The notes under the pieces were generated by a model. That model was not told the DNA's origin. It searched no databases and saw nothing but the letters and a program-made list of their open reading frames with translations. Below, one piece after another: positions 50,747-56,480 of a stretch of 64,000 nucleotides of DNA. A program made the translations under genes and the position numbers. The stretch's first letter is position 1. The number at the start of each line of letters is the position of its first letter. Origin of the DNA: a virus. The stretch is taken from positions 64,001 to 128,000 of IMG/VR virus record IMGVR_UViG_3300031963_000016; one strand, written 5' to 3'.

Positions 50747-51917
50747 TCTTATTAATAGATTGGGCATTTCTGAAGATGATGTTTCATATAAAAAAGCAAG
50801 ACGCAAAGCAAGAGCATTAAGGATAAGAAGAGATAAAAGATTTATTAAACGCTGGACTTGGCAAATTGAAGATGGATTTCCAGCAGAACAATTGTTAAAA
50901 GGTAATGAGATGAGTGATAAGATATTTCTTGGTGTGAGTGATTTTGATGATTTAATTTCATCAGAGGTGCTTCGCCGTAGAACTGAAAATGGATTGACAA
51001 CTGTACAACGTGAGACTACTGTTCTTTGTAATCGTGAGACATGGAAGCACTGGGCTGAAGATTATTTCCAGGATTACCTTTACACACAAACATCTTCTTC
51101 TGCTGGATTCGTTATCCAAGAAGAATCTATGCAACTAATTAAATTTGATGTTAATAGCAACTCAACAACTGTTCGTTGTTTTGGTGATGTTGAATGGGCT
51201 GAATCTGTTATTGATTCTATTGAAAGTAAATTTTCAGTGGTGACATCTTATATCGAATGGATTTATGGTGGTGATGGTAATTCCGTCAATGTTCCATTAA
51301 ATCGTGATCGTCTTCCTGTTGAAGAAATGTATCCATTCCTTAAAGGCGAATCTCTTAACGATTATTACGATCGTTACATGGAATCTTCTGCCAACATTCT
51401 CCTTCTAATTGGACCTCCAGGAACTGGTAAGACTACATTTATTCGTGGTTTGTTGGCACATCGTTCATGTTCTGCAATCGTAACATACGATGCAGGTATT
51501 CTTGAGAAAGATGGTTTCTTCGCTCGCTTTATTGAAGACGATGCAGAAGTTATGGTACTTGAAGATAGCGATGCATTTTTGAAATCTCGTACTGATGGCA
51601 ATACAATGATGCATCGTTTCCTTAATGTGGGTGATGGTCTTGTGACAACTAAAGGTAAGAAGATGATTTTCTCTACTAATCTTCCAAGTATTCGTGACAT
51701 TGACTCTGCTCTTATTCGTCCAGGAAGATGCTTTGATATTGTTGAATTTAAACCATTGTCTATTAACGACGCTAATAAATTAGCAAACAAACTTAACACT
51801 ACTATTCCTGAGAAGAAGGCAGGTGAGGTTGTTGAATATTCTATTGCTGAGATCTTCAATCAGCAAAGTGAACACGCACATACTGCCAAAACAAATAGAA
51901 AGGTAGGATTTATTTGA
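50727..51917 (+). CDS. AAA+ ATPase with basic N-terminal extension
   Basis: GPPGTGKT, VMVLEDSD, FSTNL, DSALIRPGRCFD; ends RKVGFI. Confidence 0.9.
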   Translation: MANSITDLINRLGISEDDVSYKKARRKARALRIRRDKRFIKRWTWQIEDGFPAEQLLKGNEMSDKIFLGVSDFDDLISSEVLRRRTENGLTTVQRETTVLCNRETWKHWAEDYFQDYLYTQTSSSAGFVIQEESMQLIKFDVNSNSTTVRCFGDVEWAESVIDSIESKFSVVTSYIEWIYGGDGNSVNVPLNRDRLPVEEMYPFLKGESLNDYYDRYMESSANILLLIGPPGTGKTTFIRGLLAHRSCSAIVTYDAGILEKDGFFARFIEDDAEVMVLEDSDAFLKSRTDGNTMMHRFLNVGDGLVTTKGKKMIFSTNLPSIRDIDSALIRPGRCFDIVEFKPLSINDANKLANKLNTTIPEKKAGEVVEYSIAEIFNQQSEHAHTAKTNRKVGFI

Positions 51918-52969
51918 AAATAGCAATCATAACTGATCAACACTTTGGTGCACGAAATGATAGTATTGCATTTCTAGATTTCTTTCAAAAATTCTATGAT
52001 AATACTTTCTTTCCTACACTTGATCATCACAGTATTGACACTGTTCTTATTCTTGGCGATACTTTTGATCGTAGGAAATATGTTAATTTCTATGCGCTCC
52101 AACGATCAAAAGAAATGTTCTTCAACAAACTTTCTGATCGAGGCATTTCTGTTTATATGCTTGCTGGTAATCATGACACTTACTATAAGAATACTAATGA
52201 TGTAAATTCACCAGACCTTCTGTTAAGAGAATATAAAAACATTAAGGTTATAGACAAACCCACAACCATTGATGTTGGTGGGTTTAACATTTGTATGATG
52301 CCTTGGATCTGTCCAGAAAATTATCAAGCATCATTGGATGAATTAGAAACTACAACTGCCGAAATTTGCATGGGACATTTCGAGATCGCAGGATTTGCCA
52401 TGTATAGAGGAATGCAATCTAATGAAGGACTTTCTAAAGAAATATTTGATAAGTTTGATTTGGTTTTTTCTGGTCATTATCATCATAAGTCAGACGATAG
52501 TCATATTTACTATCTCGGCAATCCCTATGAACTTACTTGGCAAGATTACAAAGACCCTCGAGGATTCCACTTGTTTGATCTCAACAGTCGAGAACTCGGA
52601 TTCATTAGAAATCCGTATACTATGTTTGAAAGAGTCGAATACAACGACAAAGAGCAAGAACCCATCGACCTCGACACAATCGATTTAAATCAAAAATTTG
52701 TAAAACTTGTAGTCGTCAATAAAACTGATTTTTATAAGTTTGATAAATTTATACAAAAGTTGTATAATAAAGGCTCATATGAAATCAAAATTATTGAAGA
52801 TCTATCAGAGTTTGAAGATGGTGAGGTCGGTGAAGAGATTAACCTTGAAGATACGTTATCTGTGCTTGCTCATTACATTGACTCGATTGAAACGGATATT
52901 GATAAAGAACAAGTTAAAACATTCATGCGAACACTCTACACAGAAGCAGTAAATGTTGAGGTTGTTTAA
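51914..52969 (+). CDS. gp47: Recombination nuclease gp47 (Mre11/SbcD-like)
   Basis: IITDQHFGARND, LGDTFDRRK, GNHD, SGHYH, YLGNPYE. Confidence 0.97.
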   Translation: MKIAIITDQHFGARNDSIAFLDFFQKFYDNTFFPTLDHHSIDTVLILGDTFDRRKYVNFYALQRSKEMFFNKLSDRGISVYMLAGNHDTYYKNTNDVNSPDLLLREYKNIKVIDKPTTIDVGGFNICMMPWICPENYQASLDELETTTAEICMGHFEIAGFAMYRGMQSNEGLSKEIFDKFDLVFSGHYHHKSDDSHIYYLGNPYELTWQDYKDPRGFHLFDLNSRELGFIRNPYTMFERVEYNDKEQEPIDLDTIDLNQKFVKLVVVNKTDFYKFDKFIQKLYNKGSYEIKIIEDLSEFEDGEVGEEINLEDTLSVLAHYIDSIETDIDKEQVKTFMRTLYTEAVNVEVV

Positions 52970-53583
52970 TGATAGATCAAACTACATACACTGTTTACGA
53001 AAGTGCAGTTAGAGATTATATTGATAAACATTGTATAGTTAGAAAAAATATGCCAGGAAAATATCCTGGACAAAAATACACTTGGATGTTTTATCTAAGA
53101 AATGGATTGTTTAATCCAGTGTTTCTACATTATGTTAGTGAAATGATGTTATATAAATTGCATCAAGAATTAAAAACTTTCCACTTTCAGATTTGTGGAG
53201 CTGAGACAGCAGGAACACCACTTGCTGCCTCAATACCTTTAATAGCATATTCTCATAAAATAGAAATGTCTGGATTTGTTGTCAGAAAAGATCAGAAAAC
53301 TTATGGTCTAAAAAATTGGCATGAAGGTATGGCATTTAAAGATGTTCCGTATGTATTAGTAGATGATCTCTGTAATTCTTCAAAATCTTTAAAACATTCT
53401 GATACTGTTTGCAAAGCACTTGGTTTGACACCAACAAACATTGCTATTGTTGTAGTTAATAAAGTAAATAAAAATGTTCATGAAGAAAAACGTGCTAAAA
53501 CAGATATGTATCTACCAAAGGAATATAAGGTTATTTCTTTATTCGACTTAGATTCTTTTAATCTATCTAACCCATCGCATTAA
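52969..53583 (+). CDS. Type I phosphoribosyltransferase-fold protein (PyrE-like, divergent)
   Basis: GAETAGTPLA, VRKDQKTYG flexible loop, YVLVDDLCNSSKS PRPP-loop-like motif. Confidence 0.75.
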   Translation: MIDQTTYTVYESAVRDYIDKHCIVRKNMPGKYPGQKYTWMFYLRNGLFNPVFLHYVSEMMLYKLHQELKTFHFQICGAETAGTPLAASIPLIAYSHKIEMSGFVVRKDQKTYGLKNWHEGMAFKDVPYVLVDDLCNSSKSLKHSDTVCKALGLTPTNIAIVVVNKVNKNVHEEKRAKTDMYLPKEYKVISLFDLDSFNLSNPSH

Positions 53584-53601
53584 TGTGAAATGGAAGGCTA
53601 A

Positions 53602-54114
53602 ATGAATAATTATGAAAAACACGCTCGTGAAGAATTCCGAGCAGCAGGTTGGGTAAACGAAAACGGAGAATTCACTGATGAGATGCAGGGGATGATTTGT
53701 GAACATGTTCTGAAATTGTTGGAAGTTTTTGAAGGTGAGGGGCACTCTGGCTCTTCTGCACCATATGCTATTAATCTATTCTCAAGACTAGCGAAGTTTG
53801 AACCGATCGCTCCATTAACTGGTGAAGACTGGGAGTGGAGCGATACTGGGCATGATGTTTATCAGAACAAGCGAGCATCCCATGTATTCAAGGATAAAGC
53901 CACTGGTGAATGCTACGACATCGATGGTAAAGTGTTTTGGGAGTGGGCTAAGTCCTATGATACAGGTGAACCATTCAAGTCATACTATACCTGTAGAGAA
54001 TCACGAGTACCAGTGACTTTCCCATACACTGTACCGAAAGAACCAGAGTATGTATATCGCTACTCTGATGCCGAGCCACCAGCACCTCCACAAACTGAAG
54101 CTGGGTTTATTTAA
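53602..54114 (+). CDS. Hypothetical phage protein
   Basis: SD GGAAGG; GEGHSGSSA, PIAPLTGEDWEW, YQNKRASHVFK. Confidence 0.75.
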   Translation: MNNYEKHAREEFRAAGWVNENGEFTDEMQGMICEHVLKLLEVFEGEGHSGSSAPYAINLFSRLAKFEPIAPLTGEDWEWSDTGHDVYQNKRASHVFKDKATGECYDIDGKVFWEWAKSYDTGEPFKSYYTCRESRVPVTFPYTVPKEPEYVYRYSDAEPPAPPQTEAGFI

Positions 54115-54140
54115 TGATTGTATTTAATAACCCACAATAG
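54114..54140 (+). pseudogene. Probable orphaned original 5' end of gene 46 (MIVFNNPQ*)
   Basis: ATG coupled by TAATG to the upstream stop; MIVF matches the gp46 N-terminal pattern (cf. MITF at 54762). Confidence 0.6.
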
Positions 54141-54151
54141 AAAAATGAAAA

Positions 54152-54171
54152 CTCCTAAATAAAATTAGGAG
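54152..54171 (+). promoter_or_regulatory. SD-sequestering hairpin containing a late promoter (CCTAAATA, 54154-54161)
   Basis: CTCCTAA pairs with TTAGGAG; ATG at 54177. Confidence 0.75.
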
Positions 54172-54176
54172 GATTT

Positions 54177-54761
54177 ATGAAATTCCATAAACTAACAGAA
54201 GAACAACTTTTGATTTTAACTAATCCATCTAAGACTTTAGTAGAAATATCTAAAGTTCTTGGTATAGGAACTGCTACTGCCCAACGATGGAGATCCAAAC
54301 TTGGGGTCACTGTTCCAAAAGGCAGCAAGAAAGGGAAAGAAAGACCATGGCAGGTTAAACAAGAAGAACGAAGTTGCTTGTATTGTGGAGCATCTTTTAT
54401 GGTCACTCCATCTGACACTAAAAGATATTGTTCTCAGAGTTGCGGTAGTAAGAACATTGATAAATCTTATATGCAAACTGAAGAATATAGAAATACCTTG
54501 AAAAAGGAAAGCACTCCAGAATATCGTAGATACTCAAATAGAGTGCATGTTTTAACTAGAAAAATATACGAAGAGCATCACACAGAGATTAACCCAAACA
54601 ATTATCCAAGAGGGTTAGCTGGTCAAGCTGGAATCTACCACTTAGATCATATTGTCTCTATTCGATATGGATTTGATAATAACATTCCACCAGAAGAAAT
54701 TGCTGTTAAAGAAAATCTTCAGATGTTACCGTGGAAAGAAAACATTAGTAAAGGTAAGTGA
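54177..54761 (+). mobile_element. Free-standing HNH homing endonuclease gene
   Basis: N-terminal HTH, CLYC...YCSQSC zinc finger, C-terminal YHLDHIVS...NLQMLPWKENISKG HNH-type core. Confidence 0.85.
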
Positions 54762-56480
54762 ATGATAACCTTCCGCTCAATCGCTTGGCAGAATTTCCTA
54801 TCAACTGGCAACTCACCGAATAAAGTTCTATTAAACAAATCACCCACAACTCTTATTATTGGTAAGAATGGTGAAGGTAAAAGCACAATTTTAGATGCAT
54901 TGTGCTTCTCATTGTTTGGAAAACCATTTCGTAACATTAATAAAAATCAGCTGATTAATAGTATCAATGGTAAGAAATGTATTGTTGAGATTGAATTTTC
55001 TATTGGTGCAAAAGATTATAAAATTGTTCGTGGCATCAAACCAAATATCTTTGAGATTTGGCAAAATGGCGAACTATTAAATCAAGATGCAGCATCAAGA
55101 GATTATCAAAAGATTTTAGAACAGCAGATCCTTAAACTTAACTATAAGACATTCACACAGGTAGTAATTCTTGGTAGTGCATCGTTTGTTCCATTTATGC
55201 AATTACCTCCAAGCCAACGCAGAGAAGTGATCGAAGATATTCTTGATATTCGCATATTTTCTACAATGAACCAGTTATTAAAGGAAAAGGCACAAGAAAC
55301 TAAGGATGAAATTATTAGAGTTGAGTCTGACATCAAAAGTGCAAAGGATAAAGTCGAAGCGCAACAAGTTCTCATTAAAACTCTCTCCAATGCAAAGGAT
55401 GAGAGCATTAAAGCAGTCCAAGCGAAGATTGATGCTAACAATGCTCAAATTTCTACTACGGAGAGCGAGATCATCACCATCGTGGAAGAGATCAATACTC
55501 TTAAAGCAAGCATCACAGGTAAGGAAAGATTATCTGAAGATATTGAGAAAGCCAAACAGTTAAAAACCAAACTCAATGAAAAGGTAGAAACCTGTGAACA
55601 TGATGCAGAGTTTTTCAACGAACACGATGTATGCCCATCATGTGCACAAGACATTCCTGAAGATCATAAGCAAAAGATTATTCATGACTTGCATAATAAG
55701 ATGCAAGAGAATAATAAAAAGATCACTGATTTGGAAGATGCCCTTACTAATCTGACAAACAAATTAACAGACATCAATAAGATCATTGATGAGATTACTA
55801 CAAAGAATATCGAACTCTCTACAAAGAACTCAACTATCACTTTATTAAATAAACAAATTAAAGAGTTTGAAACTGAGATTGAAACAAATAAAGCAGACAC
55901 TACGAATCTTGATGAAGAAAAGGCAAAGTTAAAACAACTAGCCAAGGATGCTCTCGACAAGATTACTCTGAAGAATTCTCTACAAGAAACTCGAAATCTT
56001 GAAGAGGTTGCATCCATTCTTCTGAAAGATACTGGTATTAAAACTGCGATCATTCGTGAGTATCTACCTGTGATGAACAAACTTATCAATAAGTATCTAA
56101 ATGCGATGGATGCTTATATCCATTTTGAACTTGATGAAGCATTCAATGAAATTGTAAAATCTCGTCATCGTGATGATTTTACATACGCCAGTTTCTCTGA
56201 AGGCGAGAAGATGCGTATTGACCTTGCAATCCTTTTCACTTGGAGACAGATTGCAAAGATGAAGAACTCAGTCAATACAAACCTACTCATTCTTGACGAG
56301 ATCTTTGATTCTTCTCTGGATACTGCAGGAACAGATTACTTCCTCACATTGATGAACTCATTCGGTGAAAACTCCAACATCTTCGTTATTTCTCACAAAG
56401 GTGACCAGCTATTCGATAAGTTTAGGTCAGTGATTAAATTTGAAAAACGCAACGATTTTAGTGTAATTGTAAAAACGTAA
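54762..56480 (+). CDS. gp46: Recombination ATPase gp46 (Rad50/SbcC-like)
   Basis: NFLSTGN, GKNGEGKST, CPSC zinc hook, FSEGEKMRIDL, LILDEIFD, ISH. Confidence 0.97.
   Translation: MITFRSIAWQNFLSTGNSPNKVLLNKSPTTLIIGKNGEGKSTILDALCFSLFGKPFRNINKNQLINSINGKKCIVEIEFSIGAKDYKIVRGIKPNIFEIWQNGELLNQDAASRDYQKILEQQILKLNYKTFTQVVILGSASFVPFMQLPPSQRREVIEDILDIRIFSTMNQLLKEKAQETKDEIIRVESDIKSAKDKVEAQQVLIKTLSNAKDESIKAVQAKIDANNAQISTTESEIITIVEEINTLKASITGKERLSEDIEKAKQLKTKLNEKVETCEHDAEFFNEHDVCPSCAQDIPEDHKQKIIHDLHNKMQENNKKITDLEDALTNLTNKLTDINKIIDEITTKNIELSTKNSTITLLNKQIKEFETEIETNKADTTNLDEEKAKLKQLAKDALDKITLKNSLQETRNLEEVASILLKDTGIKTAIIREYLPVMNKLINKYLNAMDAYIHFELDEAFNEIVKSRHRDDFTYASFSEGEKMRIDLAILFTWRQIAKMKNSVNTNLLILDEIFDSSLDTAGTDYFLTLMNSFGENSNIFVISHKGDQLFDKFRSVIKFEKRNDFSVIVKT

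Follow-up and report, generated by a model that had tools for sequence, protein, structure and literature searches.

How can a homing endonuclease gene come to lie inside the coding region of an essential phage gene that nevertheless stays intact? This question is raised by gene 46, a recombination gene (gp46, Rad50/SbcC-like), in a stretch of 64,000 nucleotides (nt), here called the window, which covers positions 64,001 to 128,000 of the IMG/VR record IMGVR_UViG_3300031963_000016 and belongs to a complete T4-like virus record (161.7 kb) of a freshwater phage. In the window, a mini open reading frame (ORF) at 54114-54140, which reads M-I-V-F-N-N-P-Q-stop and whose ATG at 54114 overlaps the stop codon of a 170-residue ORF, is followed by an endonuclease-like ORF of 194 residues; gp46 begins at 54762, on the base right after the TGA of the 194-residue ORF, and reads MITFRSIAWQNFLSTG. 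An earlier note on this DNA had proposed that an HNH endonuclease gene was inserted into the first codons of gp46 and supplied a replacement start. Both the mini-ORF and the restart are present as it described them, as are the C/G-ending codons early in gp46.

In this study, the locus was compared with gp46 loci and with loci carrying homologues of the 194-residue ORF. The gp46 set comprised 80 loci from viral contigs, kept out of more than 600 matching ones, and the element family set comprised 67 loci, obtained by a viral-contig search with an alignment of the 194-residue ORF and two distant homologues; individual loci are given L numbers below. The nearest cultured relatives of the window gp46 (∼50% identity) are those of Methylophilales phage Melnitz and the cyanomyoviruses, and a megablast search of the region against 50,697 phage records gave no match. 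What is seen directly is how the locus is built, that filled and empty sites both exist, that the junction is conserved through the family, that the gp46 start is reworded locally and that divergent phages share an identical cassette. The reading preferred here, with a probability of about 0.8, is that a homing-endonuclease gene was copied, along with replacement codons 1-11, into the early coding sequence of gp46, after codon 11 and before codon 12.

Empty sites and the displaced gene start

Among 70+ relatives, gp46 most often opens with exactly the 14 nt with which the mini-ORF begins, and its product then starts M-I-V-F-K. Relatives without the element were expected, from the earlier note, to run straight from these 14 nt into gp46, and this is what was found at L010, L015, L023, L029 and others, where no endonuclease gene is present, and at L152. 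The last of these was found by a search with the Tad3-like protein encoded upstream of the mini-ORF. Its gene order is gp47, Tad3 (79%) and gp46 (76%), the endonuclease gene is absent, the Tad3 stop overlaps an ATG, and the 14 nt of the mini-ORF continue there as an intact gp46. Because the same Tad3-like gene sits upstream, L152 represents a true empty site. Three pairs of empty and filled sites are thus available, namely L152/window, L010/L087 (for which the L010-type loci provide the empty site) and L017/L018.

The left junctions of the loci with homologues of the 194-residue ORF extend the mini-ORF to a relic of 33 nt, corresponding to gp46 codons 1-11, of which 23 nt match both L152 and the consensus. 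The insert therefore separates codon 11 from codon 12, right in front of the conserved F-L-S-T-G, and does not lie at about codon 4. The relic is intact over its 11 codons at L087 (2417-2449) and L091 (2378-2410); at both of these loci the relic ORF runs on to a TAA within the late-promoter motif. Codon 9 of the relic is changed from TGG to TAG (54138-54140) in the window, and TAG is also found there in L085, L086 and L093, and the relics of other loci have decayed further. The peptide of the mini-ORF is not conserved, and its stops are at differing codons. The relic is directly followed by a (T/C/G)TAAATA motif, and the distance from its end to the endonuclease ATG is 25-36 nt in 12 of the 17 carrier loci scanned. 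Furthermore, in seven distant clades the relic resembles the gp46 start of its own locus better than at least 99% of control windows do (p <= 0.01). Relics of this kind recur in the same register in at least 12 further loci that carry the endonuclease gene, from different clades, and together with the identity of the first 14 nt to the commonest start this exceeds chance by far. In the clade of the window, the similarity of the relic to its own functional gp46 start is not significant, as would be expected for a start that has been reworded, and the empty alleles are the comparison that counts.

The rewording is sharply local. In allele pairs with 80-85% identity over gp46 nt 61-360, the identity within nt 4-27 was 48 +/- 9% for carrier/empty pairs and 78 +/- 9% for empty/empty pairs of equal overall divergence. 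Eight distinct carrier alleles were also compared by column with 32 empty alleles (gp46 identity of at least 65%), and systematic differences were confined to gp46 nt 1, 6, 9 and 13-15, with Fisher p values of 1e-7 to 2e-3 that overstate independence because the eight carriers share one endonuclease lineage; beyond nt 16, these 8 and 32 alleles do not differ systematically. The start codon is ATG in 28/32 empty alleles and in 1/8 carriers. Codon 2 is ATA in all eight carriers and in a single empty allele (a change from ATY to ATA), and codon 5, which is AAA or AAG in 29/32 empty alleles, is CGC, CGT or CAT in 7/8 carriers, the window having changed Lys5 from AAA to CGC, a codon found there in none of the empty alleles. 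The local divergence of the 54762 copy that had been predicted is thus borne out, ending at nt 15; the 54762-type start, looked for in the empty alleles as the outcome that would speak against an insertion, occurs in 0/32. Together, the empty-site and rewording comparisons support the proposal that the element supplies a replacement gp46 start.

Starts are also unusual elsewhere in the family. In the L018 and L066 lineages, the endonuclease ORF terminates within the first 14 nt of gp46. At L088 (3198), L091 (3147), L093 (3216) and L110 (2996), none of the codons ATG, GTG and TTG occurs in frame ahead of the conserved I-I-x-F, a GGAGG lies 7-9 nt upstream of an ATC, and gp46 at these four loci would seem to use this non-canonical ATC as its start codon. 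The same four loci contain an extra ORF of 35-40 residues between the endonuclease gene and gp46.

The shared cassette, the 194-residue protein and its predicted control

Most of the homologues in the 67 loci sit directly upstream of gp46, in phages whose gp46 is 23-100% identical to that of the window. Dozens of metagenomic T4-like phages with a gp46 of only 23-92% identity have a homologue at this junction together with the relic; the arrangement is old and family-wide, and not the one-off invasion implied at first. Its presence is sporadic but at one precise site: the element or a remnant of it was found in 4/78 gp46 loci. Recent movement is indicated by comparison with the loci L082, L083 and L084. 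Only one mismatch in 1,224 nt separates 53585-54808 from L083, which lies in a 163.6-kb contig from another sample, and the Tad3-like gene is 100% identical across L082-L084, whereas the flanks of the shared cassette are 70-80% identical in all three. Besides the endonuclease gene, the shared tract takes in the Tad3-like gene and the relic on its left and the new gp46 start on its right. On its right side, divergence resumes at 54809 (gp46 nt 47) for L082 and L084, and at ∼54890 (near nt 129) for L083. An identity of ∼100% amid flanks of 70-80% indicates recent homing with co-conversion, by which the anti-defence Tad3-like gene appears to hitchhike. In addition, the identities of the endonuclease and of gp46 to those of the window are decoupled (100/78% at L083, 73/92% at L086 and 35/74% at L106). 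Older pairs of Tad3 and endonuclease genes, with 65-67% and 73-74% identity, are present at L085 and L086. The cassette occurs in many freshwater metagenomes, and in one independent DNA run (X10) unitigs end and branch at both of its edges (53584-53613 and 54870-54887), which fits, as a suggestive observation only, a cassette residing in several phage backgrounds of one sample.

Loss of the element has also left traces. At L005 (3887-3994) and L016 (2545-2658), only the last 36-38 codons of the endonuclease gene are left, beside a reworded gp46 start. Retention of just the 3' end suggests that it is kept as the supplier of the ribosome-binding site on which gp46 now relies. Among cultured phages, no carrier of this endonuclease family at gp46 was found; the homologues of Sinorhizobium phage phiM12 and of coliphages phiS and Pu-Krd-SF5 sit at the junction of the sheath and tube genes, that of phiM12 in a plain spacer with no relic. 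The same C-terminal module is also encoded at L116 (2183-2745) and L119 (1215-1777), there joined to an N-terminus of repeated 'PWNKGLK' motifs, by a gene that has a gp55-like gene on one side and gp47 on the other and follows a terminator and TATAAATA. A short stretch after the gp55-like stop loosely resembles the gp47 start of L116 and is a possible, ambiguous relic.

The 194-residue protein is HNH-like on the basis of its motif and of weak fold evidence. Scored over 42 homologues, the invariant residues are C67, C70, C85, C89, D157, H158, N180 and N189, the last four of which are also invariant in 14 locus-derived C-terminal domains. This D-H...N...N pattern agrees with that of the HNH (beta-beta-alpha-metal) superfamily, in which a catalytic Asp-His pair ends strand 1 and is joined by a structural Asn and by a helix residue, Asn or His, that binds the metal. 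In an AF2 model with a pLDDT of 89, an N-terminal three-helix helix-turn-helix (HTH; residues 1-44) is followed by a zinc ribbon (67-89) and by a C-terminal HNH-like module (150-192) of strand-strand-helix form (strands 154-158 and 181-185, helix 186-192). The best PHROG is 5104, of unknown function, with weak matches to HNH and EndoVII PHROGs (E 1e-6 to 4e-6). Foldseek gave nothing clear with the whole model; with a domain-only model, its top rows were nearly all HNH nucleases (colicin E9/E7, pyocin S2, Cas9 HNH and I-HmuI). VIA-align superposed residues 112-194 on the Gme HNH nicking endonuclease (4h9d; root-mean-square deviation 5.9, 74 residues) and also matched the HNH protein of phage GVE2 (5h0o), while residues 1-44 paired with HTH domains.

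Upstream of the endonuclease gene, a hairpin at 54152-54171 with a fold z-score of -3.4 carries a late-promoter-like CTAAATA (54155-61) within its 5' arm and is predicted to bury the Shine-Dalgarno (SD) sequence. Most of the 14 family members that were folded keep the same layout with differing stems: the SD falls in the 3' arm, and the late motif lies within the 5' arm or precedes it. This is the layout published for I-TevI, I-TevII, I-TevIII, segB and Aeh1 mobE, in which a late promoter is combined with a hairpin that sequesters the SD; because the 5' arm carries or follows the late promoter, only late transcripts can be translated (PMC2988022). In the window element, the layout is a prediction and the motif of the clade is CTAAATA, not TATAAATA. 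CTAAATA occurs at ten sites in the window, all on the + strand and at half the chance expectation, and lies 2-77 nt upstream of the next ORF start at six of them, while TATAAATA occurs at three sites. CTAAATA is probably the late-promoter core of this phage, and the endonuclease would be expressed only late. The point at which ribosomes coupled from the upstream gene stop may influence the opening of the hairpin.

The proposed element consists of the late-promoter-like motif, the SD-hiding hairpin, the endonuclease ORF and a duplicate of gp46 codons 1-11 with its first 15 nt reworded. Upstream of it, the original 11 codons persist as a relic that is decaying but keeps its coupling to the gene before it. 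In the late phase of a mixed infection, the enzyme, presumed to be an active nuclease, would cut element-free gp46 alleles at a presumed site near their start. Repair would then copy the element from the carrier genome together with flanks of variable length, here at least 47 nt of gp46 rightward and the whole Tad3-like gene leftward. Two features would protect the carrier: the insert splits its target, and the copy that restores gp46 has a reworded start, which may resist cutting; the rewording would also remove a direct repeat that could otherwise delete the element. Translation of gp46 would now depend on the 3' end of the element.

Alternatives and the history of the junction

Several points weigh against this account. 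No Pfam HNH model matches the ORF or 41 homologues, searches of the PDB by sequence and by profile gave zinc-ribbon noise only, and the structural matches are weak (E > 1 with Foldseek; Z of 5.6 for 4h9d and 4.6 for 5h0o with VIA-align), so that the nuclease assignment rests mainly on the motif; cleavage of the empty alleles by the enzyme is a step that we infer. The identical cassette is known from metagenome assemblies, in which switching between strains at a shared sequence is possible. Furthermore, the carriers in the window clade share one endonuclease lineage, and their rewording may be a single inherited event instead of the outcome of repeated selection. The reworded codons could then be plain native sequence, that is, the ordinary gp46 start of a distant donor acquired through one illegitimate recombination and inherited since, with no evolved immunity. 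Fungal mitochondrial mobile ORFs (mORFs) offer a parallel, since they carry foreign C-termini that have been interpreted as horizontal transfer (PMC3630166). However, among the empty alleles CGC at codon 5 is absent (0/32) and ATA at codon 2 is nearly so (1/32), and in every independent endonuclease lineage (the L018, L066, L091, L093 and L105 types) codon 2 is ATA and the start is non-ATG or shifted. In addition, the sister loci L017 (empty) and L018 (carrier), which are ∼93% identical elsewhere, differ at 12 positions in the first 48 nt of gp46, where the differences are concentrated and all synonymous, including a serine switch from TCA to AGT. A foreign donor is accordingly regarded as an unlikely source of the 15 nt.

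The 194-residue ORF might instead be a moron, an accessory gene for a DNA-binding protein or a nuclease that ordinary recombination moves about at a hot-spot junction. The lack of a Pfam HNH match would suit such a gene, and the junction does collect unrelated genes, among them orf204, the Tad3-like gene and small ORFs. However, these other inserts precede the gp46 start codon, and only the endonuclease family of the window lies inside the ORF with a duplicated start. The sporadic presence at a fixed position in very distant phages, the tract edges inside gp46, the degenerate remnants, the regulatory design like that of T4 endonuclease genes and the invariant residues of catalytic type all argue in the same direction, and an accessory gene of this kind is considered improbable. 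It is very hard to maintain that the mini-ORF is a chance or functional leader peptide, with the endonuclease gene in a plain spacer and a native start at 54762: the four-residue match M-I-x-F could by itself be due to chance, but this explanation is refuted by the empty sites at L152 and the L010-type loci and by a 33-nt register that is conserved in more than 12 loci although the peptide is not.

Many phage homing endonucleases are encoded in introns, but a self-splicing intron with the relic as exon 1 can be dismissed almost entirely, given the in-frame TAG in the relic, the ∼30 nt of noncoding sequence upstream of the ORF and none downstream, and the lack of any Rfam match in 53900-55000 at E <= 1. 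The splicing-free layout claimed earlier thus stands on the stop in the relic, the absent Rfam intron and the separate ORFs. Contigs from an RNA library cover parts of the ORF (no meaning attaches to the parts left uncovered), bridge into gp46 and are colinear across 54761/54762, which is weak evidence against splicing; being contigs, and possibly derived from DNA carry-over, they show neither transcription nor transcript ends, and splicing is excluded by the in-frame stop and the missing intron match and not by these RNA data.

The features of the locus are collected in Table 1. Among 78 related loci, gp47 mostly runs up to the gp46 start or overlaps it. At L038, a homologue of orf204 is the sole gene between gp47 and gp46. 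In the window, the stop of orf204 overlaps an ATG (region 53581-53601), and the next 17 nt equal the 3' end of a small ORF (...VKWKAK*) that sits upstream of Tad3 or gp46 in L083, L087 and L006-L015. Successive insertions, each made at the gp46 start codon, have turned the gp47/gp46 junction into a palimpsest.

Table 1. Features between gp47 and gp46 in the window
Feature	Position	Strand	Basis or remark
gp47 (Mre11/SbcD-like)	51914-52969	+	Metallophos domain
orf204, accessory gene at the gp47/gp46 junction	52969-53583	+	Phosphoribosyltransferase-like, weak; PHROG 32468, E 3.7e-5
3'-end relic of a small ORF (...VKWKAK*)	53584-53601	+	Left edge of the shared cassette
Shared cassette	53585-54808	+	∼100% nt identity with L082, L083 and L084
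Tad3-like (anti-Thoeris family) gene, 170 residues, inside the shared cassette	53602-54114	+	PF25185, E 4e-35
Vestigial gp46 codons 1-11 (relic), coupled to the Tad3-like stop	54114-54146	+	Match to empty alleles
Predicted hairpin burying the SD	54152-54172	+	Arm 54152-58 pairs with 54165-71; SD 54167-72
Free-standing homing-endonuclease-like ORF, 194 residues	54177-54761	+	N-terminal HTH, four-Cys zinc ribbon, C-terminal HNH-like module
gp46 (Rad50/SbcC-like), 572 residues, intact, full length	54762-56480	+	AAA_23, SMC_N, Rad50 zinc hook
Replacement gp46 codons 1-11	54762-54794	+	Reworded at nt 1-15 (54762-54776)

Comparison with known systems and significance

Close parallels are found in mitochondria. 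The mORFs of Allomyces macrogynus atp6 and of Glomus atp6, atp9, cox2 and nad3 carry a diverged duplicate of the displaced C-terminus, with the native end left as a relic (PMC3630166 and work cited there). They share with the window element an endonuclease gene inside a coding gene with neither intron nor intein, a diverged duplicate of the displaced gene end, an unexpressed native relic and differences that are largely synonymous. However, the part replaced by the mORFs, which lie downstream of the gene body, is the C-terminus, whereas the window element replaces the N-terminus and the start codon; their enzymes are LAGLIDADG or GIY-YIG proteins and not HNH-like, and they reside in an organelle genome, often in frame with the host gene, whereas the window element belongs to a phage and consists of separate ORFs.

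Within phages, T4 MobA (genes 39/60) and Aeh1 MobE (nrdA) split their host genes and add tails (PMC2988022, PMC3045599, bioRxiv 10.1101/2022.08.31.505936). In these cases as in the window, an essential ORF of a T4-like phage harbours a free-standing HNH or HNH-like gene, sequence of the element keeps the host gene working and protects it from being cut again (in the window, presumably), and the endonuclease is progressively lost while scars stay. The outcome is different, since the Mob insertions yield two polypeptides with tails (and a 50-nt bypass in gene 60), whereas in the window a useless relic of 8-11 codons is left and translation of the entire protein begins at the replacement start. 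[quoted passage not shown]

A second case at gene 46 was found in phage T6 (L182, 8490-9344, minus strand), where a 284-residue endonuclease-like ORF follows codon 6 of the gene and gene 46 restarts 16 nt after this ORF with a reworded copy of its first codons; T4 (L183, 4900-5040, minus strand) provides the empty site. The host gene, the gene end and the remedy are the same as in the window. However, the T6 protein has an H-H...N...H motif near its N-terminus and no similarity to the window ORF, its ORF takes over the original GTG start and first six codons of gene 46 whereas the window element brings a promoter motif, a hairpin, an SD and an ATG of its own, and the duplication is 18 nt as opposed to 33 nt. 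To judge from these sequences, convergence has led two unrelated families of endonucleases to one and the same end of gene 46 and to the same remedy. No description of a phage endonuclease gene with a replacement N-terminus was found in the literature, the coverage of which was incomplete and is not proof of absence.

A wider reading that joins these observations is held tentatively, at somewhat less than an even chance. Terminal replacement would be a general and convergent solution, used by at least two unrelated families at the first codons of gene 46 across the T4 superfamily, which lets phage homing endonucleases occupy essential ORFs with no introns, inteins or gene splitting. The break-prone junction would recruit and then spread accessory cargo, here the Tad3-like anti-Thoeris gene in its 1.2-kb cassette. 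A look-alike of the I-TevI homing site serves that enzyme as an autorepression operator and, by analogy, the relic near the late promoter might act as such an operator too.

If the preferred reading of an inserted homing-endonuclease gene with replacement codons holds, it would bring to four the documented ways in which phage homing endonucleases reside in an essential coding sequence, the others being introns, inteins and gene splitting with tails, and would be the mirror image of the trick of the fungal mitochondrial mORFs. Annotators should interpret a short 'orphan' ORF as a relic where it is coupled to the gene that precedes an endonuclease gene of this kind, and the endonuclease family deserves a profile of its own, Pfam having none. 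The 15 reworded nt point to candidate recognition bases. Furthermore, the empty site, the fresh relic, the decayed relic and the decayed endonuclease are all on record and form a natural series for target immunity, retention and loss, and the presence of the Tad3-like gene in the cassette accords with recent evidence for a role of homing endonucleases in shaping which anti-defence genes phages carry (PMC13096335, PMC10448857).

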